Part shown: piece after piece, positions 1,229-19,612 of the stretch
Layout: every line of letters begins with the position of its first letter
How positions within the stretch are numbered: position 1 is the stretch's first letter
NCBI GenBank assembly: GCA_001662655.1
Contig: KV460291.1
DNA length: 20,000 bases
Reading direction: 5' to 3' (one strand)
Origin: Pseudogymnoascus verrucosus
Lineage: Eukaryota
Position numbers and translations under genes: made by a program
Notes under the pieces: model-generated
Database searches by the model: none
What the model was told of the DNA's origin: nothing
The model's input: only the letters and a program-made list of their open reading frames with translations

Positions 1229-4177
1229 TCACCAAATGCGCTTAGCAACCATTTCGTATCTCGTAACCTTGTCAAAATCCGTCTGTTGCTTCGCCTGTTC
1301 AGCCCATTTCTTTTCCCTATCTTTCAGCTGTTTAGCGCCCTCCGGGTCATCTTCATATATGATATTCCTCTTCTCTTCCCCCAGCTCCACCATGCCGAGC
1401 CCGCCCAACCGCTTGCCTTTCGTGTCCAGGCCCATATTCTCGCGTATATTCATGGTCTCGTAGCGGCGGCGAGAATATCGAAGTAAGAGCATCCCGAGAA
1501 CAAGTTTGCAACTTAGAAGCGCGAGGAAGGCTCCGAGGAAGAAAGCTGCCATGGCAATGAATGAAATAATATCGTCAGAGTCAAAGAACTGCCACGTCCG
1601 TTCCACTGATGCGCCGGTGACATATGTCGACCGGCCTAGAGCTTTGCGAATAAGTATATCGAGGTGCTCCATTGCAGCCGTTGTTGCGGGTGAAGCAGTA
1701 GCCTCAGATTCAAGGGATATTGACGTCGCGGTAGATGCCAGTGGTGGTGGGAAATGAGTGGCGACGAACATGTGGTAAGTCTGGACAGACGCGCGGATAA
1801 AGAGGCAAGACAGTGGGATAACTGGGAGGCCGAGCCGTTTCGTGAGATTTTGGTTAACAAATGCGTTGGTATAGTAGTCCTTTGAGAGGATATCAAGAAA
1901 CTTCTTGTAGATAACAGGCTTGACATTGTTGAATTTTCCGACATAGCAGTGTTTGATCCAGTCGACGAGAACTTCGCTGCCGAGAACGAGAAGGAATGGT
2001 GAGAGAACCTCTCCAGACCAACTTGGGATGATCTTGAAGCTGTTTGGGATAATGGAACTGCGGAGTGGAATCGTGGCATTTCGCAACGTATCTGCAGCCC
2101 CATTGGCGGACTGTGGATTGCTGAGGATACTGAGCCCGCCAACTTCGACAATGTTTCGAAGTCCGATAATGATAAGCATCAGCCATAGCTGAAAGCGCTC
2201 CACAACGTCGGCACAAAAAAGCTGAAAGAGATTTTGCTTCTCAACTCGCTTGAAGACCGTCCCTTTGATTTCCACAAACTGGTTGCTGAGAAGCAGTGTG
2301 AATAAAGAGTTAGAGTAGGAATTCACGGCCACATTTAGGGTGATGACTTGGTAGAACAGTGCGGTGGCATGTATGACATTGTACACCAACGTCAAAACGA
2401 ACATCCCTAGCGGTTGAAGAAGCTTGGATCGACCATCCAATCCTCGCTCCAATGTCTCATCACACACCAGGCATTCAAGAATATCTTGTCCAACAGCAGC
2501 GAGCAACCGGTCGCCAACCTAAAGATATTTAGTTCAATCCGCAACCATATGATTCGAATAGCTTACCTCCAAAACGTTGTATATAACATACAATTTCATA
2601 GCTGCCTGCCCTCTGATGCTATGATACATGCGGCTAGCATCTAGTTGCATCAAAATGATACAGCTAAAGATAATAACTAGCCCCTGAAGAATATCGGCCT
2701 TATGATACGGTGATAATGTCGACGGAACAGATCTGGTTCTTCTGTGCCTTCTGCCCCATTCAAGCTTCGTCCTTTTCTCTCCAGAGCGACGGCCTTCCGT
2801 CTCCAGGCCACTGGCGCCGCTAGTATCGGAAAACCTCCCATTTTCACGAGGTCTTGGCGACAATATCTGCGACTGAACGCCGTCCTGACCGCCTTGAATC
2901 GGGGGCGCATGAGGGATATCAGCGCTGGAGCTATAGCCTCTGCGGCGATGCCACAGCCGCGGTGATCCATGATAAATAAACAATGCCACGAAGCGCGCCT
3001 CTGCCGCCAGCGACTTGGCCCACCAAGATACCAAAATACCAATGGCTTTTATGAAACGCAGAGGAAGAATTGTGAATGTATAAAGCCAGGCATCAAGGCA
3101 TGCCAACGTTCCAAACAGAAGAGCAGGTTCTAAACACAAAGGTACAAGTAGAAAGTTCAAAAGCCGTTCAAACTTAACCTTTGCTGACTCGTAGGGGTAT
3201 TCCTGGCCACGAGACCGATGTATATATAACGGCGATGGCCGGGATGACGCTAGTTCTAATTCGAGGTATGTGCTCAACAGCGGAGGGAGAGGGATCTCTT
3301 CGCTGGTCTGCGGTAGCGCGGACTCAGAGGGTAACGGTGTTACTCGTGGGCGTCCATTGCTAGCCGATAACTTGACGGAGGTATTTGGATCAAACCCATC
3401 GGATCCCCGCATCGAAGGGGTTTGTCTTCGCACCGGTGACATATTCCTCGAGCTTCTTTCTTGCCAGTTTTCACGGCGGCCAACTTGTGGGCTAGAAATC
3501 ACACGGGAACTTGTGCCGGGGCGTTGGCTTCCAGACGAGAATCCCGATGTGCGAGCAGATGGTGATCGGATTTGCTTAGATTCGAAATCTTCGAATGTCA
3601 ATGGATTTTGAAGGGTTGTCCCTCTTTTTCTGGAATCCGGTTGCATAGAAGCTGGTAAAGGAAGCGATTCAGGCTGAGATATCAAGTTCTCAATTTCAGA
3701 GGATGACAGTTTCCGGACTCCTTCATTGGCCGTATCGTTGGCCGTGGAGGCATCTCTTTGTTTCTTGACCGTTTCGCCCTGGGCTTTGGGCAGTTTTGGA
3801 CTCCGCAATGCCGCAGCGTCATTGACTGGTGGGATGGGAGCTTCTAAATAAGAATCATCCTTCCATACATTATGTAGAGCGGGCGTCGGTAACCGGCTGA
3901 CAATATTGTTGCTTCGCTCTTTGCCGAAACCTCCATCGAATTCGGTCTCTGGCGTCGCTGGCGAAATGAGGGACGGCGACGTGCTTCTTGGTGACGGAGA
4001 AGGTGACGGCGAAGGAAGCTGGTGACCTTCTAGAGCTTGGTCGCGCTGCTGGGGATTCGATGTGAGGTATTCCCCTCTCAAGTCGTTATTTCGAGCGGTG
4101 GTTTCGGCATGATTCATCGATTCCATCAGTCGGCTTAATTCCTCCCCGCAGTCTGTGGCTGGGATATTAACAGGCAT
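1229..4177 (-). CDS. EMP65: TAPT1/Emp65 (DUF747) family ER membrane protein. Exons 4177-2567, 2518-1229
   Basis: Family motifs LDASRMYHSIRGQAAMKLYVIYNVLEV-GDRLLAAVGQD, LNVAVNSYSNSLFTLLLSNQFVEIKGTVFKR, VDWIKHCYVGKFN and C-terminal RYEMVAKRIW. A 48-nt GT-AG intron (2566-2519) joins the two ORFs in frame. Confidence 0.92.
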
Positions 4178-4632
4178 GGCGCTCTATGAGCGGTACACAA
4201 TAGGTGGCCACATCTATGGCCTTTAAGCAAGGGATATAAGTATACAGGCGTGCTCCGTTGAAACGTAGGTCGTGGACGAGGCTGAGAGATGTTGATGATG
4301 AAATGTGGTGTCTGGTGGCACTCCACTTTGTAGACAAGGTAGCCTCGCCTCGCTCGGCCCGCCCCCAGTATTATTTTTAGCGGATGTTAAACAGCGCAAC
4401 GAACCTAACAAAACTATACAATATTATGAGAGGTGCTATCCATTATCGAGAACTCAGATTTAAATTGAGCAAGCCAGAATCAAGTGACTCTCTTTTAAAA
4501 GAGTGATCCGGCTACATTTATTTAATTCATCATTTCTTATCAAGTCTGTCTATGAAGAGGATATACGCGATAGTCATCTAGCTTGGGTCACCGCGAACGG
4601 TTCCCATATTCATGTTCATTCATCTCTCCCTC

Positions 4633-7600
4633 CTATTCGCTGTCTGAAATAACAATCGGCTCTTTGCTTGCCCAGCCGTCATCCGGTTTGGTATCTTTCA
4701 TTTCAACATCATCATCGAACCCCTCAAACTCATCACTATCGCCAGGATCTACTGCTGGAAACGTTTCTTCGCCATTTGCTGCTTTTTCAGATTCCCATTG
4801 GGCGTAGAGAGCATTGAAAAGCTCCTTTCCAAGAGCCCTTCCGTGTTGCAGAGAGACAGCATTGCCAATCTGCTTGTACATGGCACTTGGAGGCTGGGTG
4901 TTGGGATCCCATGTAAACGTGTCCAGAAACCCTTGGGCCCTGGCAAACTCTCTGACCGTAAGAATTCGGCGTTGGGTTGGATGTAAGATCTGCAATAATT
5001 ATATTAGTCCGCTGAAAGTACGGGATCAACCAGTTAAGGATTGTATTTACCTTGCCATTCTCGCCGCCTGGGTCAACGTTTGTCAGGCAAGTCTGAAATT
5101 GCTCTTTAAAGTCCAACCGATAATAGCGATTCGGGTAGAAGTTACTCTTTGAAGCTCTTTTATTACGCAAGCATGCCATATCGTGCTCAAGGGGCAAATC
5201 GTTATGGTTTGCTTGCGGTCTCATTGGAATACGGGCGAGCCGCAACATTGTCTGAGAGCCCCATTGGCGAGTAACGTGGTTCTTGACAATATCCCCCTTG
5301 ACATAACGGCGTACTTCTCGTTGAAATTCTGCAATCGGTCCATAGGCGTACACAGCTCTGTTATCCCCAATTGGCGCCTTTCCATCTGAAGGCACCTCAA
5401 TTGTTGGTATCCCCAATTCCCGTTGGCGTCGAGCTTGACGGTCTTCGCCAGGCACTTTAATTCTCCAATCAAAAGCTGGCAAGTCGAAAATTGCATCTCC
5501 AACTGTGACTGGATTATGAGGCGCAGTTCTTCCCATGGTGAACGTATTGGTTGGAGCTGAAAGACCTTTGCAAACATGGGTTGGCTGCGGATATAAAGGC
5601 AATTTACGGCCCAACAAGGCACCCCAGAAAAATACTCGTCGCCGGGATTGGGGCGCGCCATGTTCTGCGGCTTGCAGCATATGAAACTGAGCTGAGTAAC
5701 CCAGAGATGTAAGTGCTCGGAGAATGAACTTCACGCTACCTTGTTGGATGCCCCCCTGGACACCGGGGCCGGACTTTTTCTGGGTACTACCCAGTCGATG
5801 TTGTAGTAGCCCACGGACATTCTCCAGCAGGAAGTATTTCGGTCCATAGTGGTCCACATAGGATAAGAATGTCGTCAGTAATGAATTCTTGATCGAATTT
5901 GCCTTGGGACATCGATTGCACCCTGAGAAATCCTGGCAAGGTGGACCACCGTACAAGAAGTCACTGGGAAATGTTAGAAACATCTCCTCTGGCAATAATA
6001 CATATCGACCCCCTCTAGGTTACTGGTAACTCACATATCGCCACGTTTGGGCATAGGGGGCATCGGCTTTCCCTGGAGGTCTTTCATGACGCCAGTTGCT
6101 GTTCCTCGTTCTTCCTGGATAGCTCTCTGTAGCAACGTGTTCGCATTCTCATTGTATACTTTCATACGTGGAAAGTTTCTCTTGAGAGTTCGACTGGCAT
6201 CGATATCCCATTCAATGCCGTAAAGTGTCTCCACAGCGCCACCTTCATGCAGCCCAGAAGAGAGGCCGCCACAACCGGCAAACACATCCATCGCTCGGAG
6301 CTTGAGGCCAGCTTTTGAGAATGCCTCCTGTCGCTTCTCCTCCGTTCCAACCATTACGTTTCCGTCGACGGAATCATGAAAATCCTCAGCATTAAGCGGC
6401 TGAAGGTCTTCGATATCAAATGCTCTTCTCGTCGTTGTTCCATCGAAACAATCAGGCTCTCTGTCGGTCACATAGAATGTATCTTCCAGGTCCTTATATT
6501 TCGCGAGATTATTAACTCTGCTTGGATGCACAACTTGGCACTTTCCAAGCAGCTTATCGTCGACGTCGATCGTTTTCCTCCTATTAGTGAGATACAGTCT
6601 GCGACTGTCCCGAATGGCGTGTTTTTCGCCACTCTTGAATTCAGTCCGATAATCGCTGTTGAAGTCATCATACCTTCTGAGTATCTGTATGGTGATATGG
6701 ATACCTTGCACTGAGTCTCGAAGTTTAGAAGGATCTTTCACAGCCCAATTAAATCCCCCTGTGCATTTGATGTGAATGATTTGACCGATCGTATGAGGCT
6801 CGTCGGACGCCCTTGGGAGCATATAGACACAATCATTGAGCTTGTATTCAATACCGTCGTGTGAGAAGCTGGTTGCTGAGCGGTCTTCGTCGATTGTGCC
6901 TGTTACCCTCGTAGAGAGCTCATGTTGTATCTCTTCGCGTCTGGCGCAGCAGAAGCAAAGTTGAGAGTGCTCTGTGCCTGCAAGCTTGATATTTTCTTCG
7001 TGGAAACTAGCATCTTCAAATCTTACGGGCGTGGTTTCGTCATCATCATAGAAGAATCGATAGAAATAGCAGTTTGGCTTCTTAAAATGGTCGCTTTCTT
7101 CTGAAGGACCAATTTGAGTGCATCTCTCCACATTTACTTTGCCAGCAATTGTGCTCTGTAAGGTTATCAGTGGGGTCCACGAATATACACGTGCCCTCTG
7201 AAAAACTCACCATATCAATATCATCGCAGCGGTCGAGTAGGAATAGCTCTTTTGGGCCGGCAGTTTCATCAAGAAATGTGTCACCTCCATGAGAAAACCA
7301 TCGGACATGAGCCATGGGGTCCCCACTCTTATTGGCGAATATGTTGACAATTCGTGCAAACCAGACCCTCGCAGCTGTCTCCTTAATATTCTGTTTCAGT
7401 TTGCCGTTGGCAGTGAGGTGATCTCGATCATCAATCCCTGCACTGTTTGAGACTTAACAACCATATTGACCTGCCGAGAGGAAGTATATCTTACCGCACC
7501 GTAATACAATCCCCGGGGAGAAACCGATCTTTGTCAATGAAAGCAGCTCCATAAAACTTCGATAGTTTCTTGTCAACCCACTTAACTGGGGGTATCAGCT

Positions 7601-8601
7601 CGACTTTGTCAGTATAATCCCTCCCCGTCCAGCCTTGTTCCCGTAGCTTGTCTCTATTGACGGTCATATCAATAAGACCACCCAACTTGCCTTTCTGAAC
7701 GTATGATTCCATGAGACCTCCTTTCTGATTCAGAGCATCATCTCCATTGCAAACCAGTAGCGTCTTCACATATAATCCGCCAACCAATCTTCCGATCCAT
7801 CTGGTCACGGTTGTATGTTCGGTGGCTTTGTCATCTCCTGAAGGGCGCTGGTGGGGTGCACGAACCCTTGATACTCTCGGCGTTCGGACACGAACGAATG
7901 GCTCATCGTCATCCTCTAAAGAACTGTTCTCCGAGGAATTTTCGTAACCAAGTATATTAGACTTTCCCTCACCTCGGTAGTGTTCGCCATCTGAGCTGTC
8001 ATCGTCGATGACTATCGGGCTTCGAACACCTGGGGGTTCTCCATTCAGATTCTCCGTACTTCCATTATGTCCAATGGTTGCACTACTTGCACTTGGAGCT
8101 AAACCGGGGTCGGAATCGAGTGTTCTTGTGGGCAAACGGTTTTTCGAAGGGCATGGGTCATATCCATTTCTGAGTTCGTATACTTTTCGAAGCGTAACCC
8201 TCTCATTCCAGCCAGAACCTTTGAGGATGTTGACCAACTCATCTGAATTGATCAGTCAATTATATAATAGACTTTGTGGGTGCTCACATACCTGGTTTCA
8301 AGTCTGGATGAATGCTGAAAAACAGCTGAAAACGCTCTCGAATGCCGTCGTCGGTGACTGTCTCCATTCCATCATCGGCAACATCTTCCATCCCATCATC
8401 GGCAACAGTTTCCATATAATCATCAGTGGCATCTCCCATGCCCTCATCAGAGACAGCTTCCATGCCATCGGCGTCCACAATCTCCATGTCATCATCACAG
8501 GTGATATATCCCTTGGATATTACGATATATTCTCTCTCGTCAAGGAGAGCCTCTTCAAAGCCACCCATAGACTCTGCATCTTCTTCCGTGGCAGGTTCCA
8601 T
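4633..8601 (-). CDS. DNMT1: DNA (cytosine-5)-methyltransferase, DNMT1/Masc2-type, with tandem BAH domains and a C-terminal catalytic domain; 1226 aa. Exons 8601-8292, 8242-7495, 7442-7211, 7155-6035, 5963-5051, 4989-4633
   Basis: Motif I DVFAGCGG, IV GGPPCQ, VI LLENV, VIII QSRRR, IX LTVREFARAQGF and X YKQIGNAV are all present. BAH1 reads [30 protein letters not shown]. Five GT-AG introns (8291-8243, 7494-7443, 7210-7156, 6034-5964, 5050-4990) give a continuous 3681-nt frame. The start codon is the least certain part. Confidence 0.9.
8347..8496 (-). repeat. Degenerate 24-bp coding tandem repeat, about 6 copies, encoding DDGMEXVX-like acidic octapeptides in DNMT1 exon 1
   Basis: Plus-strand units: gtcgtcggtgactgtctccattcc / atcatcggcaacatcttccatccc / atcatcggcaacagtttccatata / atcatcagtggcatctcccatgcc / ctcatcagagacagcttccatgcc / atcggcgtccacaatctccatgtc / atcatc. 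Confidence 0.85.
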
Positions 8602-9015
8602 CCCAGTTTTATGAGGGAGCCTCCGTCACTCTGTCGGGTTCGTCGCTAGGCCTAGTGGACTCTTATCAACATAAAGTTGGATTGTTCGTTGTAGAGACCG
8701 TGTGTGCTCGGATCCAAAGTGCGAAATCCAAAATCCGAAAGTCGAAATTCCGCTATGGAAAGGGGGTAGGGTGAAGTTATCTGAAAAAGTGAAGCTCTAA
8801 CAAAGGTAGCTGCGGGCCAAGAAAACTATAGAAAAGATCTAGAAATGGTGTGCAACTATCCGAATTTGCTTTTTATCAGCATAAAGCGAAAGGTGATTAT
8901 CTGGCAAACATTGGAGGTGATGTAAGATAAACGTGGATTAAAAGGGACGGCGACAAGGAGTGGTTGTAAGTCTATGTCTGTTCCAAGTGAATTTGAGTGT
9001 TGACAACACCGCGTT

Positions 9016-9233: not shown

Positions 9234-10068
9234 TTAGGATTTTCCAGGCTCAACTAAGCCATACTCGCGGTGTAGCTCATCCCATACATCCTTCGCACCA
9301 TCATACTCTTCAAGATCCTTCTTGATGTCTTTATACTCCTCAGCTTCTTCTGGGGCAATGTTCACTTGACCCAAGCCCGCCAGGATCCCTTCCACCTTTG
9401 TTTTCATATTTTCAATGCCGTTCGTTTCTGCCTTTGACCTTGCTAATTGAGCCTCCATCATTAATATCAGACTCTCTCTCGCCTGATGAGGCCTATATTC
9501 GTTCAATAAGTGGTGGAAGTTTATGAATAGTGTCCGTAAATCTTGAATCTTCTCTGCATATTGTTCAGGGTTGACGCTCATGATGCCCATGAGTTCAAGA
9601 AAGTTCAATAGTAAAGACTTCGCAATTCGTTTTAAGATCAACGTGCGATCTGAATGTGATTGTGGGTCTGATCCTGCGCCAGAGCCTGATGGGGTGGCAG
9701 GAGGGGAGTAGAGTTGTTCTATTCCTTGCTCGGTAAGGGACGGTAGGATGTCGTTCAACTGGTAGAATATTAGTTTAACATTCTCCATATCACCAAACAG
9801 CAGCTAGGCATAGGAAACCACATACATTGTAAAGGTCGCCAAAGCTCCTGTACGTTCCTTCGGCAGGAGGCTCTGGCGGTTGAAGGTATTGGAGATCGCC
9901 TCGCAACTCAGGTTCTTTGGGTGAATCATCTTTTTGGCTTGAGTCGGACTCCCTCCCAGCGCGTAATATGGCTACACGGGCGAGGTTTTCTTCGGTGAAG
10001 TGCTGGTAAAACGGAGGTGGGCTTGGAAAGGCCGATGCCTGAACATTCCCTTGTTGTTGGTCTGCCAT
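9234..10068 (-). CDS. MED7: Mediator complex subunit 7; 255 aa. Exons 10068-9826, 9758-9234
   Basis: SAFPSPPPFYQHFTEEN, YLQPPEPP..GTYRSFG, LPSLTEQGIEQLY, SLLLNFLEL and NFHHLLNEYRPHQARESLI are Med7 signatures. There is a 67-nt GT-AG intron at 9825-9759. Confidence 0.95.
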
Positions 10069-10476
10069 TGAGACAGCACACGCGGCACAGCCGCTCAGAA
10101 CCAGGCAAGGTTGTTAATCGAGATATCCAGTATTTATTTCATCGCGTCGTGGTCTATCGTTGGAGCTTTTTGCGATAGGTCCTGCGGTTAAAACGTTGCG
10201 ACGCGGTAGTTGAGGAGTGAGGAGGGGCGCATACGCGGGATCGGCAGGGAAGGTCAATTTAAAGCTTGGGGTGGAGCAACGCGGCTTTGGTGGCAGGGAT
10301 CGCAGTTCGACCCTGTGGGGTACCACCGCCAGATACGACACACGACAACGTCCGTCAGCAGAGAGTTGAACGCCAAATCTCAGTCGATAAAGGCCACCGC
10401 ATCATGGTGTAAGAGCATAATAACATCTCATCGGTGCCTACAAACTGTACCAACTATCTGGGTTCCAAAAGCGACA

Positions 10477-11687
10477 ATGGCGCAATCGAAGGGGAAGGGT
10501 CGGGCTACCAACGGTCTTACAAGCAAACCAGGCGTAATCGGGGCGGTTGCCAGATTTTGGCAGAAGACATATGCCCCGGATTATGTTGGCCTAGCAGTCC
10601 TTATAGCTGCTTATATTGTGGTATGAACCTCGTCATGACTTCTAAATGACTTTGGCTGACATGTTGCGTGTGGATGAAGCTCGAGTTCAACACCACACCA
10701 TTCCATAGATTATTCGAACTGGGCAACATCGACCTTGCCTACCCTCATGCGGAACATGAAAGGGTTCCAGTCTGTGAGTCTCAGTCTTTAGATTACTCCA
10801 CCTCTATACTCGTACGGCCCCAGGGTGTTCGTAAGGCGTGTGCGAAGCAACGAGCAAGATGTCACCAGTTATCCATTCATACGGAGAATCTAGAACTTTC
10901 AGCGGCTACTTCAGCACAGCCCCTATGAATACTTCCGAGCCACACAGGCGCCTTTCAGAGCACTGGCTAACTATAGTTAGCAATGATGTTCCTCTACGGT
11001 GGCGGCGTCCCCCTCATCGTAATGGCTCTCTGGCTCGCCATCTCCCGCGCCGGGTTCCACAAGTCCCACGTTACCATACTCTCATTCTTCATTGGCATGC
11101 TGTTAACGGCTGTCATTACCGACCTTATCAAAAATGCCGTCGGCCGGCCACGGCCTGACCTCATTTCCCGCTGCAAAGCGAAGGCGGGCACACCTCTTCA
11201 TACACTCGTCTCATGGGAAGTTTGCACAGAGACTGACCACCACCGTCTCCATGATGGATGGCGCTCTTTCCCTAGCGGGCACTCCAGCTTCTCATTCTCT
11301 GGCTTGGGCTTCCTGGCGTTGTTCCTCTCCGGTCAGATGCACGTTTTCCGTCGCGAGGGTGACTTGGCAAGGGGCCTATTAGCCTTGGCACCGCTGGTGC
11401 TTGCAGGCTGGGTTGCAATTTCGCGATGCGAGGACTACCGCCACGATGTGTATGATGTTACTATTGGCAGTGCTTTGGGGATGATTGTTGCTCATTGGAG
11501 CTACCGACGATTTTATCCGCGTCTGAGGAATGTGAATTGCGATGCTCCGTATGCATCGCGGACGTCAGCTGCATCTGGAGGTGGATTTGCGAAGGTCGGA
11601 ACCGATGAGGAGGCGGCAGTTATGCATGAAGGGACTGGGCCGAGTGCGTTCAATCTCGGTGAGATTGATAGCGGAGACTCAGACTGA
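10477..11687 (+). CDS. DPP1: PAP2-family diacylglycerol pyrophosphate/phosphatidate phosphatase. Exons 10477-10620, 10680-10773, 10981-11687
   Basis: Catalytic motifs KNAVGRPRPD, SFPSGHSS and SRCEDYRHDVYD; N-terminal PFHRLF..I.YPHAEHERV. Introns 10621-10679 and 10774-10980 keep the frame. The DPP1 versus LPP1 assignment is by resemblance only. Confidence 0.88.
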
Positions 11688-11970: not shown

Positions 11971-12899
11971 CTAGGTGACAACTCTATCGCCGTCGCTGGT
12001 ATCTTCCTTCGCTAAGTCGTTCTCCTTCAGTAGCGTTTCGATCTCCTCCGCGCTCCATAAGTGATGGTATATCTTGCCCTCCTTCGTCTTGCCAACAGTT
12101 GCAAACTCGACTGTAAAATATGTTAGTTTCCTTGATTAGAAATCAAAGCGCACACAGGAGACTTACTCTTCTCGCTGCTAAGCTTTGTCGCATCCATCGT
12201 CTTGCTCAGCACCTTCACGGCCATCACGCACGCCTCCTTGAGGTTGCAATCCTCCTTGTAATCCTGCTTCAGCAAGCTTTGGGCGCTTGCGTTATTTGCT
12301 CCCACGCTTGTTGCCTTCCACCCGCCGTAGTTGCCACTGGGGTTGCTCTGGTACAGCTGGAACTGCCTTTGGGGGTCGTAACCTGCGTAAATGAACGAAA
12401 CACCGAATGGGCGCAGACCACCGTGCTGCGTGTAGCCTTGCTTGAGATCGCATAACCTCCTCACAAGCTGTTCGCATGGGATATCTTCGTTGTAGGTAAG
12501 GAGGTAGCGCTGGGCGGCTTGACGGGCGTAGTTGATGAGGATGTTTGCGTCGGAGACCATGCCTGCTACTGCGCAGATCATGTTGCTATAGAGAGTTTAG
12601 AATTCATCCTGCTGAACAGAGTATCTGGCCACGTACTCGTTCAAGATGTAGAGCTTCTCAGCTGAGGTATCTTGCTCCAGGAGCTTGCTGGTAACCTTCC
12701 TCTCGGCCGCCAAAACGATTCCATCGGTAGCTAATATTCCAATCGCCGTTCCCGCGTGTGAAATAGCCTCGAGCGCATATTCGACTTGGTACAGACGCCC
12801 TTCAGGCGAGAAGATCGTCGTCTACATCACATTAGATTCAGCCTTCCAAACACGGCTACCTTGACGCATGCTTACTCGGGAATCGTATCTTCTCGACAT
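11971..12899 (-). CDS. PRE9: 20S proteasome subunit alpha-3; 255 aa. Exons 12899-12876, 12821-12637, 12585-12167, 12110-11971
   Basis: [53 protein letters not shown] and [13 protein letters not shown]. Three GT-AG introns give a 768-nt frame. Confidence 0.97.
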
Positions 12900-13227: not shown

Positions 13228-15245
13228 ATGCTAAAATCAACGCACACGCCGACGGCTCAAGGCCAGTCTCCTCTTCCACCTGGGTGGACGGAACATAAAG
13301 CTCCCACAGGTCAGTCACGCTTTTCAGCTCACTTTCTTTGGGTCTTCAAATATGAGTTTCAAGTTTATCATGTTACGATGGTTCTTTTACGTGTCGATTT
13401 TCTGTTCGGACCTGTTACGGCGTCATATTGAGGGGCCCAACCAACCCTGAGAAGAGGAGACATGCTCCAAACCCATTATAGGAGAATGTCCGTTCACTGG
13501 ATTTTTTGTCCTACTCTCACAGGCTACGATACATAAAATCGCCGTGACTTCAGCTTTTTTCGTTTAAAATCTTTTCCAAGAATAATACGCTGACACCCTG
13601 ACTAGGTCACACCTATTATTATAATACTCTTACCAAGAAGTCCACATACCAGCGGCCTGTTGAAACGCCACCGGCTCCTCAAGTCCCTGCTGTTGCCCCT
13701 AACAATCCCGCACTTGGCTTCCTACAGTACCAATCAGTTGGGAATTTGGGGCCGGGCTCTGCTTTTGGACCTCCTTCTGGCCATCACGACAGTAGAGGTG
13801 GCCCGGATAGTCATCGAGGAGGTAGAGGCGGCCATGGTTCACAGCGCGACTCGAGGCCGAAGCCGCAGCCGGTTGACAAGCCAAAAGCAAAGCGTGCTAT
13901 TCCCGGATGTGAGCCATGGTTCCTCATCGATACCAAGTTCGGGAGGCGGTTTGCGTACAACTCCGAGAAGAACCAGAGCTTTTGGCGTATACCGGAAAAG
14001 TTAAAGGAGGGTATCTTGGCACTTGATCAACAACGTATTAAGGAAAAGGCTGCTGCTTGGGCAGACGAAAGGTCAGCTGAGGCGGCTCAAGCTCCAGGGG
14101 CGCAAGAGATGCCAGGGGCTCAATCACGTCCGAAGCCAGAAGCCCCCACTGAAATCCATCCAGAGGCTGATGATAGTTCGGAATATGAAGAGGTGGAAGT
14201 TACTGATGACGAGGATGAGGATAATATTTCGAAAAGGCAACGGACTGAAGAACCTGCCCCCCAAGGGCCCGTTGAGTTCACAGAGGATGACATTGCATTT
14301 CAACTGGCCGCAATGGGCCAAGATTACGGCCTCGAACCAGGCGAATACGACGATGGCAATATGGAAGAGTGGGAAGAAGGTGCCGAGGGTATGGAACTAA
14401 CGGAAGAGGATGCAACTGCTCTCTTCAAAGACCTGCTCAACGACTCCGGTGTGAGCCCCTACGCACCGTGGGATAGAATAGTAGAAGAGGGAACACTAGT
14501 CGATGACGCAAGATATACTGCCGTTACCACAATGCGACGCAGGAAGGAAGTCTGGGACGAATGGTCGACAGAAAAAATCCAACAGCTGCGTGAGAGGCGG
14601 GCGAGGGAGGAGAAGAAAGACCCGAGGATACCATACCTGGCATTCCTACAGAAGAACGCAACACCGAAGCTGTACTGGCCCGAATTCAGACGCAAATTCA
14701 AAAAAGAGCAAGAGATGCGCGATACCAACCTCTCTGATAAAGACCGCGAGAAGTCTTATCGAGAGCATATCAATCGAATCAAACTCCCACAGGCAACACT
14801 CAAATCCGACTTCCTCAACTTACTCAAAGACCAGCCACCGGCTTTACTTAATAATTCCACCCTCCCCTCGCATCTTCCGCCAACCGTACTGGCGGATATA
14901 AAGTACATTTCCATGGATCCTTCTATCCGAGACCCTCTGATCGAGACTTTCATCGCTACGCTCCCTCCGGCACCGGAAGCACCAGAGGCTGAGGAAGATG
15001 AGGAGGCGCGGAATGAGAGGAAGGAGAGGAAGAGGAGACAGAAGGCCTTGGAAGATCGGGAGAAGAAGGTTGCGGAAGAGAAGCGAAGGCAGCAGAAGAC
15101 GTTGGCTTTTGGAAAGGGGAGGATGCGAGAGGAGGAAGAGGAAATTGCAAGAGCCATGAATGTTACGAGGAAGGGGTTAAAGGGACATTTAATGGAGATG
15201 GATGTTGACGAGGTAGACGCGCCAGCCCCAACCCCAGCCCCTTAG
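13228..15245 (+). CDS. WW- and FF-domain protein (Dre4/Urn1/TCERG1-like); 573 aa. Exons 13228-13309, 13606-15245
   Basis: Splicing out 13310-13605 restores the WW domain LPPGWTEHKAPTG|HTYYYNTLTKKSTYQRP. A second WW-like stretch follows (PWFLIDTKFGRRFAYNSEKNQSFWRIP), then FF-like repeats (FKDLLNDSGVSPYAPWD...DARY; YWPEFRRKFKKE...DKDREKSYREH). Confidence 0.88.
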
Positions 15246-15386: not shown

Positions 15387-16358
15387 TTAGCCACGCAACC
15401 GGAATCCTGCCCAATCATCATCGTCTTCGTCATCATCGTCTTCATCTTCTTCCTCTGGAGTAGCATTTGAGGCCTCCGTTTTACCCCCTTCTGCAGGTTC
15501 TGATGCAACAGTAGTGGGCTCTTTAACCCGCAATGCCTCCCTCTTCTCCTTCAACCTCCTCACTCGCTCCTCTAGTTCATTCATTTGTTCGAACTCATCT
15601 TCCAGTTTCCTCACAGCATCCTCCTTATCCCCCTCCAAGTCCGCCTCAGCCTTTTCTTTCCTCGCACTCATCTCTTCCTCCCTCGATTTTGCCGCGAGCT
15701 CTTCTGTCGTCATTGGCGCCGCGCTTATGACGGCATCGTCTGTTGTCTCTACCGCGACTTGAGCTGCCGCGATGTCGGCTTCGAAAGCTGCCCATTCGTC
15801 TTCGTCAACCGTGGGGAGCTTTGCTGCTTCTGGCACTGCATCTGGTCCTTTAAGAGGAGTGGCTGGACGTGAGGGGAGCCTGAATTCTTGACCATTGGAG
15901 TTATTGGAAGGGGCAGCTTCGGATTCCGCCTTCGTGGCGTCGTCGAAGAATCCTTGGGGTAAGAAGCCAGGCAGAGGTACATTTTTGCTTCGTTTCCTGC
16001 TGGTGTCCGCTTGTTCCTCCTCCTCATCATCATCACTAGCCTTGCGCTTCTTGGTTTGCTTTGCTGCGGGTTCTTTTTCAGCTGAGGTGGCGGCTTTCGG
16101 TTTCTCTTCGTTGTTAATTTTGGTCTGCGCAGGTTCTGGTTCTGGGGAACCAGCTGGAGAACCCGATTCGCGGCCGTTCCTTTTTAGGAGTGTCAAATGA
16201 TTCTCAGACCGCAGGTGGTCGTTCCATAACAATTCATTCTTCAGCTCAACATGACATACTACGCATTGTAGCTTCCCTGTCTCGGAGTATTTTGCATGCC
16301 GATGGCTGATGCGCCGGGCATTACGCTCATTCCGTAGCAGAGTTCGTACATCAGCCAT
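15387..16358 (-). CDS. ZNF830/CCDC16-like matrin-type zinc-finger coiled-coil protein; 323 aa, intronless
   Basis: HAKYSETGKLQCVVCHVELKNELLWNDHLRSENH finger, LPQGFFD motif, VDEDEWAAFEADI, a C-terminal coiled coil and acidic tail ending DDDWAGFR. Confidence 0.8.
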   Translation of the reverse strand: MADVRTLLRNERNARRISHRHAKYSETGKLQCVVCHVELKNELLWNDHLRSENHLTLLKRNGRESGSPAGSPEPEPAQTKINNEEKPKAATSAEKEPAAKQTKKRKASDDDEEEEQADTSRKRSKNVPLPGFLPQGFFDDATKAESEAAPSNNSNGQEFRLPSRPATPLKGPDAVPEAAKLPTVDEDEWAAFEADIAAAQVAVETTDDAVISAAPMTTEELAAKSREEEMSARKEKAEADLEGDKEDAVRKLEDEFEQMNELEERVRRLKEKREALRVKEPTTVASEPAEGGKTEASNATPEEEDEDDDDEDDDDWAGFRLRG

Positions 16359-16972
16359 CAGAGGGTTGTTTGTCGAAATTAGTTTTGTTTACGTAGAGCT
16401 TCTTCTTATGTTCCAATTGAGCTGCCAAGAGTTCCATGCGACGCGAAGCCACTACAGCCACGCCCCGCAAGGAGCTTGGACCAAGCCGCTAAATATATAT
16501 CACGTGACTCATATGACAGGGGTTCTGCCAGGTTAGATTTGCCCCAAAAACAGCTTACTTAAGTTATCTTCGCCTCGCCCCCAACTCCAAAACAACATCA
16601 TCATCGCGAACGATCTCTGCCCGCGATTTCTCGACAACTAATATCGACCCTCAACATTCTGGGTCTTGTGCGCAAACAGCTATAACGCTGTTTGATTGTC
16701 TGCTAGCCCCCTATACTCGCACAAGGCGCGTTCTGGTTGGAATCTATAAACGCGCAGGAACTTGCGTTGCGCAACGCGCCACGGAGATTGTTGAAAGACA
16801 GGCATTGAAGAGGGCTTCATTCTCTGGATAGCTCATTTGCCTTCTACACCTTAGCTTGCCCGTAGATCCAGTGATGCGCGCATGAACACTGCCGCTTGAC
16901 TTGACTGGAATCCAATTGTAAAGCGCGATCGCCTGTGAATATATTGAAATCGCGATAACACTATCACCCAAT

Positions 16973-19612
16973 ATGTCTGGTAAGCATAGATCGCAAGCAC
17001 CACGACCGTCGCCGTGCGCGACAGTGTATGCGCGTGGCGTGTGCGGCATTCAGAGCTTCAAAGCTAACGTGTTTCCCCCCACAGACGAACCTCGAAGGTC
17101 GGTCCGCGCGACCAAAGGTCAACATACGAAGAGTCTCGATCAACTCGACCAACCTGCCGAACCATCGAAGAAGCGCGGAGGAAAGAAGGCGTCTGCCAAG
17201 AAAGTTTCCTCTCAAGAAGCCTCCGCAGAGGAAGAAGAGGAAGATGTCATTCGCTGTGTGTGCGGAGCGGAGGAACAAGACGATTCCGCTGGAGAAGACT
17301 GGATCGCATGCTCAGACTGCGAGGCCTGGCAACACAATGTGTGCATGGGCATTACAACCGACAAAGATGTTCTCGAGAACATGGAGTACTGGTGCGAGAG
17401 GTGCAAGCCAGAAAACCACAAGGAGCTGTTAGACTCCATGGCTCGTGGAGAAAAATTGTGGGAGATTCGACTCAAGGCACACGACCAAGCTGTTCTTGAG
17501 GCACAGAAGAACAAGAGGGGTAGAAAAGGGAAGGGTAAGAGGGTCAGTGAGGTGAGAGCCGAAACGCCACAGAATGGCAAATCAAAGACGCCAGACGCTC
17601 AACCCGAGGCCAAGAAGGAAAAGAAGGAAGCCGCCAGTCGTGCAGGAAGCACCAAACGCAAGACTAGAGACGAGTCTCACGATGAGGCCTTGAAAGTTCC
17701 AAAAATACGCAAGGTGTCATCAACAAACGCCTCACCTGCACCAGCGGAGGAAAATGTGCCCAAGGACCTTGCACAAACAATCGCGCAGTTAGACAGCTCC
17801 CGACAAGGAGCGGCCAAACTTCTCAACAAGTCTCTTCAGTACTCTCTCAAAATTTCTCTGAAAAATGGCAGCTTTCAAGGCTCCGAGGAGGATGTTGACC
17901 CACGAGCTCTAAGCTTTGCGCTTCAAATCGAGAGAGCAATTCACGATGTCTCCATCTCTAAGTCTGCGTATAGCACTCAAGCAAAGAAGGTGGTGGCGAA
18001 CTTGAAGACTAATCAGGAACTGTGTGAACGGTTGCTATCAAGGTCTCTCACGCCAAGCGTCCTTGCGGTCATGAACGAAGATGAGATGGCCTCCAAAGAA
18101 CTCCAACGCCAAACTGCAGAAATGAAGGCACGTGCTGACAAGCAAGCCATAATGATCACCGAAGAAGATGGGCCACGTATAAGGCGCACGCACAAAGGAG
18201 ACGAGGTTATCGAGGACGAGCACTATGAAGGTGCCACCGAGGAGATGCCAGCCAGCCGCCGCCGCAGCATGCTAGATCCTAACCACGGAATGGGCGCAAG
18301 ATCGCGAGAAAACTCGCCAGGAGAAGACGAGCACCCTGAGCTCCCAATGGATATTGACGACTATCACCCACAAGACAGCACTCCTAGCGGTACACAAAGG
18401 CCACAGTCAATATCGGTAGACTCGCAGGAGACGAAGTCAGCCCAGAGGAAGGCTAGCGCGGCCGACAACTTTGACATCAACAGCGTCTACTCCAAAGTCC
18501 AATCACCAACTCTCTCTCAGCATTCACGTAAGCCATCTATGGCAGCACCACCTCCACAAGCAAACCTGGTTCAAGACCCCGATATCGACAGGCTTCTTGA
18601 CGATGGGACAGAGGCAGATTCGCCACCTTACGAACCTCCTGAGCATGCGGAAGATCCATCCGTCGTCTGGCGCGGTAGTATGGTCATGACTTCTATTTGC
18701 GACTTCAGTGCTACTGCTAGACACATTGCCGGCGCAGATCTCAGCACCGTCGGCACACCATGGTCTAACCTTTTGGACCCCCGTCTCTCCGTCGCCGGCC
18801 GCATCGATCCCGGAAAAGCGACTGAGTATCTCTGCAGTCTCCGCTACAGCCCAAAGACCGATGTCACAGTCATCTCTCTTTCTGCATCTGGCGGTGAGCG
18901 CGCGGCCAACGAGTTCATGCAGCTCTACGAATACTTCCGCAGTAAAAACCGATATGGTGTCGTCGGCAACAAGACACTTGCGAACGTGCGCGACACGTAC
19001 CTTATCCCAGTGCCACCCGGGAAAGATAACGGACCAGAGTTTCTCAGCAACCTCGACAACAACATGCTGCCCACGGAGCGTACAGAGCCAATGCTGATCA
19101 TCGCCATTGTCGTGCGCGAGCCAGAGAACCAATCCACGCTGGCCCAATCTTACGATGGCAGCGGCTCACCATCTATGCCATCCAATCACAGCCACCGCCA
19201 GCTGTCACTCGGCGGCCAAGGGCCATCCATGTCTCCCATCGTTCCCCAGCCACCGCAAGGCATGTTTGCCACCCAGTCCCCCGCCCACGCTGCACCAACG
19301 GCTGGTGTCACCTCCACCCAGCCACTCAATTCTGAGCAGCAGCGCCAGGCTCAACAGCTTCGAGGCGAGGCGGTCGCAAGAGAGATCCTGGGCGAGTTTA
19401 TTACGGCTCCCACGGCGACGTTCCTTATGGCGCAGGCGTTTCGCATGGAGCCCACCGAGTGGCGTGTCATCCGCCAGGTGTTTGAAGAAGAGAAGGATGC
19501 CCGTGTGGATCTGAAGATACTGAGTGGGCTCCTAGAGAAGAAGGGTCAGGCCAAGGCTGCCGAAGATGCGGCCAAGGTTTCTGGCGCCGGTGCCATTGGT
19601 GCCCCACAGTGA
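16973..19612 (+). CDS. BYE1: Transcription factor BYE1 (PHD finger, TFIIS central domain, SPOC); 844 aa spliced. Exons 16973-16979, 17085-19612
   Basis: EPRRSVRATKGQH, PHD IRCVCG..WIACSDCEAWQHNVCMG..YWCERC, TFIIS-M (IERAIH...NLKTN...EMASKE), RIRRTHKGDE and SPOC (VWRGSM...GRI...YFRSKNRYGV...VRDTYLIP). Intron 16980-17084 has a GTAAGC donor, GCTAAC branch site and CAG acceptor. Confidence 0.93.
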   Translation: MSGKHRSQAPRPSPCATVYARGVCGIQSFKANVFPPTDEPRRSVRATKGQHTKSLDQLDQPAEPSKKRGGKKASAKKVSSQEASAEEEEEDVIRCVCGAEEQDDSAGEDWIACSDCEAWQHNVCMGITTDKDVLENMEYWCERCKPENHKELLDSMARGEKLWEIRLKAHDQAVLEAQKNKRGRKGKGKRVSEVRAETPQNGKSKTPDAQPEAKKEKKEAASRAGSTKRKTRDESHDEALKVPKIRKVSSTNASPAPAEENVPKDLAQTIAQLDSSRQGAAKLLNKSLQYSLKISLKNGSFQGSEEDVDPRALSFALQIERAIHDVSISKSAYSTQAKKVVANLKTNQELCERLLSRSLTPSVLAVMNEDEMASKELQRQTAEMKARADKQAIMITEEDGPRIRRTHKGDEVIEDEHYEGATEEMPASRRRSMLDPNHGMGARSRENSPGEDEHPELPMDIDDYHPQDSTPSGTQRPQSISVDSQETKSAQRKASAADNFDINSVYSKVQSPTLSQHSRKPSMAAPPPQANLVQDPDIDRLLDDGTEADSPPYEPPEHAEDPSVVWRGSMVMTSICDFSATARHIAGADLSTVGTPWSNLLDPRLSVAGRIDPGKATEYLCSLRYSPKTDVTVISLSASGGERAANEFMQLYEYFRSKNRYGVVGNKTLANVRDTYLIPVPPGKDNGPEFLSNLDNNMLPTERTEPMLIIAIVVREPENQSTLAQSYDGSGSPSMPSNHSHRQLSLGGQGPSMSPIVPQPPQGMFATQSPAHAAPTAGVTSTQPLNSEQQRQAQQLRGEAVAREILGEFITAPTATFLMAQAFRMEPTEWRVIRQVFEEEKDARVDLKILSGLLEKKGQAKAAEDAAKVSGAGAIGAPQ

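Follow-up and report, generated by a model that had tools for sequence, protein, structure and literature searches.

In most filamentous ascomycetes, DNA methylation is carried out by DIM-2, RID and DNMT5, the last an enzyme in which a SNF2-type ATPase is fused to the methyltransferase domain. A hallmark of DNMT1 is its RFD/RFTS domain, which in the animal enzyme blocks the DNA cleft. Here we analyze a 20,000-nucleotide stretch of the Pseudogymnoascus verrucosus genome (contig KV460291.1; hereafter the window) that encodes a DNMT1/Masc2-type methyltransferase. Its counterpart in P. destructans, VC83_01324 (XP_024327078.1), shares a 90%-identity cluster with it, is 91% identical over its full length, has the same neighbor gene and likewise combines two BAH domains with a methyltransferase, in 1233 residues compared with 1226 for the window protein. 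We take VC83_01324 to be the P. destructans "DNMT1" of the Bewick 2019 catalogue, on the basis of which PMC7074731 lists DIM-2, DNMT1, DNMT5 and RID in this species. High CG and low non-CG methylation are described for P. destructans in PMC7862722.

The Ascobolus immersus protein O42803_ASCIM (P0201) is the closest Pezizomycete relative in our trees and shares the BAH1-BAH2-methyltransferase core and the pre-BAH1 linker helix but, unlike the window protein, keeps the RFD (PF12047) as well as the Trp, Leu and Lys of the target-recognition domain (TRD); it is approximately 38% identical to a Geoglossum query. O42803 is presumably Masc2, as a single DNMT1/Masc2 gene is given for Ascobolus in Table 2 of PMC7862722; Amselem et al. 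give the Masc2 accession as O42731. Animal DNMT1 (mouse and human, e.g. 3pt9 and 4wxx) gives the best match among solved structures (E 3.7e-75) and has in common with the window protein the catalytic motifs, the pair of BAH domains, the linker helix and TRD co-linearity; the window protein is without RFTS, CXXC, KG linker and PIP box, has replaced TRD contacts and is 27-34% identical to the animal rows. The DNMT1 enzymes of basidiomycetes and early-diverging fungi belong to the same family and have the same core, those of early-diverging fungi being 40-46% identical in the catalytic exon, but PF12047, undetected in the window protein, is present in most of them. Neurospora DIM-2 (9BAP, 9BAQ and 9BAZ, assigned to DIM2 in the data-availability section of PMC11315935) is of the same superfamily with the same BAH1-BAH2-methyltransferase order and catalytic-core motifs, but its TRD is unrelated in sequence to that of DNMT1 and it depends on HP1 and H3K9me3 (PMC11315935).

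Gene structure and domain organization

The coding region occupies positions 4633..8601 on the minus strand, as do all features described below, and runs from an ATG at 8601 to a stop codon at 4635-4633. Joining six open segments yields an intact gene with a product of 1226 residues; the five introns are all GT..AG, no other splice choices preserve the frame, and the spliced coding length of 3681 nt corresponds to 1226 codons plus the stop. The product aligns over residues 1-1226, with neither mismatches nor gaps (100% identity), to P0133 (OBT91443.1 / XP_018125176.1; VE01_10496 of Pseudogymnoascus verrucosus), and this identity to the RefSeq entry confirms the bookkeeping of intron frames. 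Splicing and RefSeq identity agree with the intact six-exon, 1226-residue gene given in the preliminary description. Full-length orthologs of 1221-1233 residues are found in at least nine Pseudogymnoascus assemblies, and the ortholog P0007 is 97.5% identical to the window protein.

Exon 1 (8292..8601) encodes an acidic, repeat-rich N-terminus comprising residues 1-103 and the first base of the following codon, with no Pfam match; a tandem repeat at 8363..8469 (4.5 copies of 24 nt) encodes acidic eight-residue repeats. Following intron 1 (8243..8291; 49 nt, GTATGT..CAG), exon 2 (7495..8242) passes from a low-complexity part through a conserved pre-BAH1 block to the start of BAH1. The block (7500..7817; residues 246-351) opens with a helix-type motif and runs into the BAH1 start, and at 95-99% identity among eight Pseudogymnoascus orthologs it exceeds the methyltransferase domain (90-98% across eight congeners) and is the most conserved part of the protein. 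The start of the block aligns with the RFTS-to-BAH1 linker, the stretch just after the RFD/RFTS domain, of Geoglossum (near-identical), Neolecta, early-diverging fungi and animals; in DNMT1 the linker after the RFTS helps to keep the catalytic helix in its active state (PMC11315935).

Intron 2 (7443..7494; 52 nt, GTAAGA..CAG) leads to exon 3 (7211..7442), which contains the BAH1 core with a Pfam BAH match at 7214-7357 (PF01426, E 1.6e-05 for the exon alone). Beyond intron 3 (7156..7210; 55 nt, GTGAGT..CAG), exon 4 (6035..7155) completes BAH1 and continues through a Cys-containing linker and BAH2 (6469-6852) into the first part of the methyltransferase, with motif I (6157-6297). Intron 4 (5964..6034; 71 nt, GTGAGT..CAG) separates this from exon 5 (5051..5963), which carries motifs IV, VI and VIII together with the greater part of the TRD, including the codon for the catalytic Cys813 in motif IV (5936..5938; PCQ) and a TRD loop region (5051..5155) co-linear with the DNMT1 loops that bear the DNA-inserting Trp, Met and Lys. 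After intron 5 (4990..5050; 61 nt, GTAAAT..CAG), exon 6 (4633..4989) provides motifs IX-X and the end of the methyltransferase (near 4816), followed by an acidic C-terminal tail that leads to the stop codon.

PF00145 (DNA_methylase) matches exons 4, 5 and 6, and P0007 with E 4.7e-45. Methyltransferase motifs I, IV (PCQ), VI (ENV), VIII (QxRxR) and X are located at residues 722, 812, 851, 909 and 1150, respectively, and a GNAV motif is present in the domain. The two BAH domains lie directly upstream, with PF01426 matching on exon 3 and exon 4 and on two stretches of P0007 (E 2.6e-26). No Pfam family beyond BAH and DNA_methylase was detected on the exons or P0007, and motif scans of the window protein found no PIP box, KG repeat or CXXC-type motif. 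A scan for PxVxL-type HP1-binding motifs, a DIM-2 feature of the N-terminal tail and the TRD, returned a single PxVxV match at residue 218, where by our estimate approximately one chance match is expected in 1226 residues.

The RFD/RFTS region and target-recognition domain

PF12047 (RFD) gave no match at E <= 0.1 on the exons of the gene and none at E <= 1 when five BAH-bearing Leotiomycete orthologs were scanned, while the same scan was positive for Geoglossum, Glutinoglossum, Neolecta and Basidiobolus. A fungal RFD HMM (34 seed sequences, 236 positions) run with filters off on 19 targets, namely the window protein, 12 named Leotiomycete rows and six others, matched only P0019, a sequence from its own seed; after that the best E-value was 0.17, and the window protein did not appear at E <= 10. 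Just 72 residues of the window protein fall within the RFD alignment columns. An AlphaFold2 model of the exon-2 part, built from a 13-sequence alignment, is mostly disordered with two short helices above a pLDDT of 69, and its mean pLDDT of 41.6 is too low to exclude a folded domain. That the RFD/RFTS is not detectable had been overlooked in the preliminary description.

In a DNMT1-type TRD, certain residues fill the DNA cavity and grip the parental 5-methyl group. The TRD of the window protein is co-linear with that of mouse DNMT1, albeit weakly (8.8 and 2.8 bits). At the columns occupied in vertebrates by Trp, Leu, Met and Lys, the window protein has Tyr, Arg, Gly and Glu, the Leu being three residues after the Trp; the role of this Leu and the assignment of residue numbers to alignment columns are our assumptions. 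None of the 12 Leotiomycete rows with residues at the Trp and nearby Leu columns (the window included) keeps Trp or Leu, and Tyr and Arg occupy these columns in 10 of the 12. Early-diverging fungi keep the Trp and Leu in 18/18 rows and the Met and Lys in 17/18, and in basidiomycete DNMT1 the Trp is absent from 11/11 rows, seven of which have a gap at the column. The DNA-inserting TRD residues of DNMT1 are W1512, M1535 and K1537 (PMC11315935), and because these are replaced, maintenance of CG methylation is not assured. That Leotiomycete copies combine the lack of a detectable RFD/RFTS with altered TRD contact residues is a modest new point.

An alternative that we regard as possible, though unlikely, is that the gene is a conserved but functionally shifted relic yielding little or no 5mC in vivo, as for Masc2, with CG methylation due to DNMT5 and the remainder to DIM-2 and RID. 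The loss of the RFD and of the TRD Trp and Leu from all 12 Leotiomycete rows would be consistent with such a shift, as would the report that methylation was unaffected by knockout of Ascobolus Masc2 (Malagnac 1999, summarised in PMC7074731) and the very low 5mC reported for Botrytis, where an ortholog is present; the CG methylation of P. destructans could itself come from DNMT5. However, the catalytic motifs are all intact, and both the methyltransferase domain and the pre-BAH1 block are strongly conserved across the eight congeners at the identities given above. Moreover, the Leotiomycete TRD is conserved in a form of its own, with Tyr and Arg in 10 of the 12 rows, and does not look randomly decayed, and the 11 basidiomycete DNMT1 rows are also without the Trp, yet reviews regard these enzymes as CG maintenance methyltransferases. 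The high CG methylation described for P. destructans likewise speaks against a relic.

Inheritance, distribution and class assignment

The reading we favor, and with considerable confidence, is that the gene is a vertically inherited Pseudogymnoascus ortholog of the fungal DNMT1/Masc2 C5 DNA methyltransferases, derived from a Pezizomycotina ancestor. The gene persists in Leotiomycetes, Geoglossomycetes and Pezizomycetes and was apparently lost from the other large classes. In three trees, the window protein lies inside the Leotiomycete clade, with Geoglossomycetes as sister and then the Ascobolus Masc2-type protein. The main tree (LG+G4, 64 rows by 829 columns, aligned using MAFFT at a faster setting) supports Leotiomycetes at 100/100, their grouping with Geoglossomycetes at 100/94 and the further inclusion of Ascobolus at 88/88, and a mixture-model quick tree left the topology unchanged with support of 100, 93 and 83, such that support for the Pezizomycotina clade is moderate. 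The nesting of Ascobolus, then Geoglossomycetes, then Leotiomycetes, recovered under two models, matches the class order and fits vertical retention rather than horizontal transfer. Neolecta falls outside the Pezizomycotina clade in the LG+G4 and mixture-model trees and inside it in one other tree, and a constraint uniting the 24 presumed ascomycete rows could not be rejected (p-AU 0.159).

The genomic context is that of a housekeeping block, as the preliminary description had proposed: the neighbors encode a DUF747/Emp65-like membrane protein, Med7, a PAP2 phosphatase, a proteasome subunit, a WW/FF protein and a PHD-TFIIS_M-SPOC protein, with no mobile elements seen among them, and GC content is even over the gene and its flanks. 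The neighbors are conserved in other Pseudogymnoascus genomes, where fused gene models include Med7 or DUF747 Pfam domains, and VC83_01323 adjoins VC83_01324. Horizontal acquisition, raised earlier and here framed as a gain by the Leotiomycete ancestor or Pseudogymnoascus from a basidiomycete or early-diverging fungus, is thereby made very improbable, as the gene tree tracks species order, ascomycete monophyly is not rejected, base composition is unremarkable and synteny is conserved across the genus, although the distribution in Ascomycota is patchy, the similarity of the catalytic exon to early-diverging fungi (40-46%) matches that to Neolecta (43%), and Neolecta is placed outside the Pezizomycotina in two trees.

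Homolog searches returned the gene under at least 11 genus-level names in Leotiomycetes and, with Phialocephala and Marssonina also in print, the earlier term "rare" retention is overstated for this class. Only DNMT1-type proteins were among the matches listed. Orthologs widespread across Leotiomycetes, Sordariomycetes and Eurotiomycetes had been named in the preliminary description as evidence that would count against it; such a spread is the case for Leotiomycetes only, and among the matches listed there was no named Sordariomycete, Eurotiomycete or Dothideomycete match. Absence from other classes is weak evidence because the searches are word-indexed and list best matches only; Botrytis, Cadophora, Stipitochalara, Neolecta and Ascobolus, found by two of the searches, were absent from another. 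A protein-cluster search excluding the RFD, CXXC and chromodomain families yielded nothing beyond short, generic methylase clusters. The suspicion that the gene may already be catalogued was well founded, given the DNMT1 of P. destructans and the Masc2 homologs of Phialocephala, Botrytis (CCD54489, which is P0158 in our ortholog set), Sclerotinia borealis and Marssonina in PMC5148876; the supplements of PMC7862722 contain no mention of Pseudogymnoascus or Botrytis. The presence of the gene in Pseudogymnoascus was already known, and the finding is real but largely ordinary.

The rows of the trees, rooted on animal DNMT1 and plant MET1, are DNMT1-type, with DIM-2, RID and DNMT5 not among them, and DIM-2 is excluded instead by PDB scores, architecture and accessions. 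P0007 scores 256.7 bits against mouse DNMT1 (3pt9, E 3.7e-75), 130 bits against maize ZMET2 and 98.6 bits against Neurospora DIM2; the match to DIM2 (9BAP/9BAQ) covers residues 715-935 only, i.e. the catalytic core, whereas that to mouse DNMT1 spans BAH, methyltransferase and parts of the TRD. Exon 5 alone gives E 3.6e-28 for DNMT1 versus 7.5e-15 for DIM2, and DIM2 is itself approximately 16% identical to human DNMT1 (PMC11315935). Grognet et al. list the Dim2 of P. destructans as XP_024321957.1, an accession that differs from the XP_024327078.1 of the ortholog. RID proteins are BAH-less, with EQT or EET rather than ENV in motif VI and a shortened methyltransferase (PMC6709928, PMC4352252), and the window protein, having two BAH domains and ENV, does not match RID/Masc1. 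No DNMT5-like domains were found on the exons or P0007, where Pfam gives BAH and DNA_methylase alone. Separately, Botrytis P0068 and Phlyctema P0250 were suspected of being DIM-2 and are both DNMT1-type by PDB scores.

Together with the Masc2-type grouping, these results uphold the original assignment to DNMT1/Masc2 rather than DIM-2, RID or DNMT5. The four peptide segments quoted in its support were all found, in exons 5, 3, 4 and 6: the catalytic exon-5 segment and, weakly (11.4 bits), the Cys-rich exon-4 segment are covered by HMMER alignments to mouse DNMT1 chains, the exon-6 segment lines up with rows of animal DNMT1, and the exon-3 segment lies within the BAH match and within residues 376-479 of P0007, which match a 158-residue DNMT1 fragment (7lmk, E 5e-11). 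Judged at the sequence level, the similarity to DNMT1 is far beyond chance. Membership in the DIM-2 family, the HP1- and H3K9me3-dependent methyltransferases usual in filamentous ascomycetes and acting in all sequence contexts, is already largely refuted and scarcely credible, for although DIM-2 has the same domain order and superfamily (PMC11315935), Pfam cannot tell the two apart and the trees are without DIM-2 rows, the DIM2 score of P0007 is confined to the catalytic core and well below that of mouse DNMT1, the window protein is placed with RFD-bearing fungal DNMT1s and the Masc2-type protein of Ascobolus, the P. destructans Dim2 accession is separate, and published catalogues count DNMT1 and DIM-2 apart in Pseudogymnoascus.

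Proposed activity and implications

As a vertically inherited DNMT1/Masc2 ortholog, the enzyme would methylate cytosine at C5 through the standard Cys-attack mechanism with S-adenosylmethionine as methyl donor and with CG sites in repeats as its most likely targets, and would presumably act alongside separate DIM-2, RID and DNMT5, as reported for the congener P. destructans. The extra methylation pathway suggested in the preliminary description is a hypothesis. With the RFTS missing and the activating linker kept, the animal type of auto-inhibition probably does not apply, and guidance would more likely be via the BAH domains and the disordered acidic N-terminus.

More speculatively, and with a good deal of doubt, the sequence comparisons might indicate that Leotiomycete DNMT1/Masc2 proteins form a distinct subclass in which the auto-inhibitory RFTS has been lost, the activating linker helix kept and a new TRD state fixed (Trp to Tyr, Leu to Arg and Met to a small residue). 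No description of a Leotiomycete subclass with these features was found in the literature covered, which does not extend to Bewick 2019 and its supplements. If such a subclass exists, the Leotiomycete enzyme would be free of licensing by ubiquitinated H3 or H3K9me3, and hemimethylated CpG would no longer be read as by animal DNMT1, making de novo action or relaxed site preference possible.

The finding by itself adds little because the gene has been reported before. The lack of a detectable RFTS and the changes in the TRD, however, lead to a testable prediction on regulation and substrate preference. The CG methylation of P. destructans is reported to be unusually high for an ascomycete, and lineages with an added DNMT1/Masc2, such as the Leotiomycetes with the genus of the bat white-nose pathogen, may serve as test beds for the division of labor among four methyltransferase classes.

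Gene structure, domain content and neighbours

On the minus strand, the interval 4633-8625 contains six open segments joined by five short GT..AG introns (49, 52, 55, 71 and 61 nt), and at each exon junction only one donor-acceptor pair preserves the frame. Splice-site and frame checks place exons 1 to 6 at 8601-8292, 8242-7495, 7442-7211, 7155-6035, 5963-5051 and 4989-4633, yielding a coding sequence of 3681 nt (1226 codons plus stop). The spliced product matches P0133, a P. verrucosus database protein (OBT91443.1 / XP_018125176.1, locus VE01_10496), without gaps at 1226 of 1226 residues; the coordinates, exon count and protein length of the preliminary description are thus exact, and each of the four peptide stretches it quoted is found in the protein. 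The methyltransferase gene is intact and conserved, its product being 97.5% identical to the full-length ortholog P0007 from Pseudogymnoascus sp. VKM F-4519.

Scanned exon by exon, Pfam recovers a partial BAH domain (exon 3), a full BAH domain (exon 4) and DNA_methylase (exons 4, 5 and 6), while full-length P0007 shows two BAH stretches (E 2.6e-26) and a single methyltransferase domain at residues 718-1167 (E 4.7e-45). Motifs I, IV, VI (ENV), VIII and X are all intact in the window protein, and a motif scan with codon check places the codon of the motif IV catalytic Cys813 at 5938-5936 (minus strand). The N-terminal ~245 residues are acidic and of low complexity, and exon 1 includes a 24-nt tandem repeat (8363-8469, minus strand; 4.5 copies, 73% matching) that encodes acidic eight-residue repeats. 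Among congeners, identity is lowest in this part of the protein (66-100%). The best-conserved block in a comparison of eight congeners is residues 246-351 (7500-7817, minus strand), at 95-99% identity versus 90-98% for the methyltransferase domain. Motif scans of the window protein turned up neither a CXXC-type motif nor a KG repeat nor a PIP box. A single PxVxV at residues 218-222 (7887-7901), with an acidic stretch before it, is similar to the HP1 chromoshadow-binding consensus, for which we estimate about one chance match at this protein length.

Pfam assigns the flanking minus-strand genes to a PigL_N protein (252-965), a DUF747/Emp65-like membrane protein of at least two exons (1232-4183), Med7 (9237-9803) and a proteasome subunit (12126-12596), and those on the plus strand to a PAP2 phosphatase (10977-11684), a WW/FF protein (13602-15242) and a PHD-TFIIS_M-SPOC protein (16922-19609); open reading frames at 10210-10623 (plus) and 15390-16388 (minus) gave no match in the Pfam scan. 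These flanking genes are ordinary and single-copy, in keeping with the housekeeping block first described. The same neighbours recur in other Pseudogymnoascus genomes, as seen in the adjacent tags VC83_01323/VC83_01324 and in fused gene models with Med7, DUF747 or PigL_N domains. The fused models (P0008, P0143, P0144, P0167 and P0178; 1448-2854 aa), in which the methyltransferase is combined with neighbouring genes, come from several Pseudogymnoascus assemblies and place the unrelated Emp65-like neighbour protein in a 90% cluster with a methyltransferase model.

Assignment among fungal DNA methyltransferase classes

With P0007 as the query against all PDB sequences, the best score was obtained for mouse DNMT1 (256.7 bits, E 3.7e-75), followed by further chains named DNMT1, 913-1574 residues long, at ~220 bits and maize ZMET2 at 130 bits. 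Entries 9BAP/9BAQ reached 98.6 bits in an alignment confined to residues 715-935; these, together with 9BAZ, are Neurospora DIM2 (PMC11315935, data-availability section). Exon 5 alone gave E 3.6e-28 for DNMT1 versus 7.5e-15 for DIM2. The TRDs (target-recognition domains) of DIM2 and DNMT1 have no sequence relationship, and DIM2 is ~16% identical to human DNMT1 (PMC11315935); animal DNMT1 rows are 27-34% identical to the window protein. Furthermore, the P. destructans ortholog is XP_024327078.1 (VC83_01324), and Grognet et al. (PMC6709928) give a different accession, XP_024321957.1, as Dim2 of that species. The separation from DIM-2 is drawn from PDB scores, architecture and accessions, as the trees took in no DIM-2 row.

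The remaining two classes were ruled out: RID by the presence of BAH domains and the ENV motif, RID-type enzymes having EQT or EET at the motif VI position (PMC6709928), and DNMT5 by a Pfam scan that found no further domain on the exons or on P0007. Collectively, the PDB score contrast, the BAH domains with ENV and the separate Dim2 accession in P. destructans support the original assignment of the window protein to the DNMT1/Masc2 type, as opposed to DIM-2 or RID.

Distribution and ancestry

Homologs were sought with the catalytic exon against longer proteins (best 120 of 336 matches, 1905 candidates), with the Geoglossum BAH-to-methyltransferase region (best 120 of at least 1096 matches, at least 7999 candidates) and with P0133 residues 352-1226 (at least 115 matches, all listed; at least 7999 candidates). 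Among the matches listed were several Pseudogymnoascus clusters and at least ten further Leotiomycete names (Claussenomyces, Oculimacula, Rhexocercosporidium, Venustampulla, Stipitochalara, Mollisiaceae sp., Cadophora, two species of Botrytis, Sclerotinia borealis and Phlyctema), so that the rarity initially proposed was overstated within Leotiomycetes. Two of these proteins are divergent yet still of DNMT1 type by PDB score, namely Botrytis P0068 (199 bits for DNMT1 versus 74) and Phlyctema P0250 (175 versus 57). The other named ascomycete matches were from Geoglossomycetes (Geoglossum, Glutinoglossum and Trichoglossum), Ascobolus (Pezizomycetes) and Neolecta (Taphrinomycotina). No Sordariomycete, Eurotiomycete or Dothideomycete name occurs among the matches listed, which is weak evidence of absence because two of the searches stopped at 7999 candidates; Botrytis, Cadophora, Stipitochalara, Neolecta and Ascobolus came up in the other searches but not in that with P0133.

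The presence of DNMT1/Masc2 enzymes in Pseudogymnoascus and Leotiomycetes is already known, as the preliminary description allowed. Extracts of PMC5148876 (2016) report a Phialocephala gene closest to Masc2 and Masc2 homologs in Botrytis (CCD54489, here P0158, which clusters with P0068), Sclerotinia borealis and Marssonina brunnea, and a passage in PMC7074731, citing Bewick 2019, names B. cinerea and P. destructans as examples of the few ascomycetes that have DIM-2, DNMT1, DNMT5 and RID together. The B. cinerea Masc2-type gene found here is P0150 (XP_024552518.1, BCIN_13g01910). In PMC8399656, BcDNMT1 is Bcin09p01910 and the chromosome-13 gene is absent from the four methyltransferases, and Grognet et al. 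(PMC6709928) label an accession in the chromosome-9 range Dnmt5. Judging by accession numbers only, the knockouts of the PMC8399656 study may therefore never have included the Masc2-type gene.

Tree rows were hand-picked to sample a spread of taxa, without the fused model P0008 and with few of the Coemansia, Lepidoptera and plant rows; a first set of 60 rows was revised to 64 by removing P0074, P0032, P0034, P0011, P0084 and P0067 and adding ten. From the first set (60 rows x 941 columns), a quick tree under LG+G4 recovered an ascomycete clade with Neolecta (SH-aLRT 96), Geoglossomycetes plus Leotiomycetes (100) and Leotiomycetes (99). In a careful LG+G4 tree (64 x 829), Leotiomycetes (100/100) joined Geoglossomycetes (100/94), the Ascobolus protein formed the next branch (88/88) and Neolecta fell amid early-diverging fungi in an unresolved region; a quick site-mixture tree gave the same arrangement (support 100, 93 and 83). 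Keeping all 24 presumed ascomycete rows together, a group defined after the trees were seen and including six unnamed rows, cost 23.8 log-likelihood units and was not rejected (p-AU 0.159). The accepted class order is Pezizomycetes, Geoglossomycetes, Leotiomycetes. GC content is even across the methyltransferase gene and its flanks. Horizontal acquisition, one of two origins initially considered, is therefore not supported; taken together, the tree order, even GC, ordinary single-copy neighbours and their genus-wide conservation support vertical retention with losses elsewhere.

The RFD region and TRD of Leotiomycete orthologs

The RFD (RFTS, PF12047) was detected by Pfam scan in Geoglossum, Glutinoglossum, Neolecta and Basidiobolus, and by precomputed domain listing in the Ascobolus protein. 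In contrast, none of the scanned Leotiomycete orthologs matched PF12047 even at E <= 1, and a fungal RFD profile built from 34 seeds and run unfiltered on 19 targets matched its own seed and nothing else. Pseudogymnoascus has 72 residues within the RFD columns versus 170 in Geoglossum, and Helotiales orthologs have 109-210 without profile signal. The helix-type segment that follows is nearly unchanged relative to Geoglossum and recognisable in the alignment out to animals; in DNMT1, the linker after the RFTS is critical for activation and the RFTS is a DNA-competitive inhibitor (PMC11315935). Directly ahead of the linker helix, Geoglossum, Neolecta, Ascobolus and early-diverging fungi have a short motif in common that is kept in the Helotiales Oculimacula and Venustampulla; Pseudogymnoascus is gapped there, and Claussenomyces has residues that do not show the motif. 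This pattern of retention and loss suggests that the RFD region eroded step by step in the course of Leotiomycete evolution.

The vertebrate TRD Trp and the Leu three residues on, a Leu that, like the mapping of residue numbers to alignment columns, we take as an assumption, are kept in animals (7/7 rows), plants (4/4), early-diverging fungi (18/18), Geoglossomycetes (3/3), Neolecta and Ascobolus. Neither is kept in any of the 12 Leotiomycete rows with residues there, the window protein included (Stipitochalara is gapped), and ten of the 12 have Tyr/Arg instead. The TRD Met and Lys positions are Gly and Glu in the window protein; the numbering and roles of W1512, M1535 and K1537 are from PMC11315935. 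These substitutions do not prove changed function because basidiomycete DNMT1s, CG maintenance enzymes according to reviews (PMC7862722, in extract), also lack the Trp (11/11 rows, seven of them gapped there).

The window enzyme would methylate cytosines at C5 through the standard mechanism, and its sites would probably be CG within repeats. Excerpts describe P. destructans methylation as high at CG and low at non-CG sites (PMC7862722) and its level as high (PMC8399656), and deletion of Ascobolus Masc2 is summarised in a passage of PMC7074731 as giving no methylation phenotype. CG methylation in the genus may be upheld by the window enzyme, by DNMT5 or by the two together. RFTS auto-inhibition is probably missing, so regulation is likely to differ from that of animal DNMT1, perhaps acting via BAH-histone contacts. 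The RFD-less architecture and altered TRD of the Leotiomycete orthologs, as read from the alignments, may be new, and constitute a modest, testable side observation.
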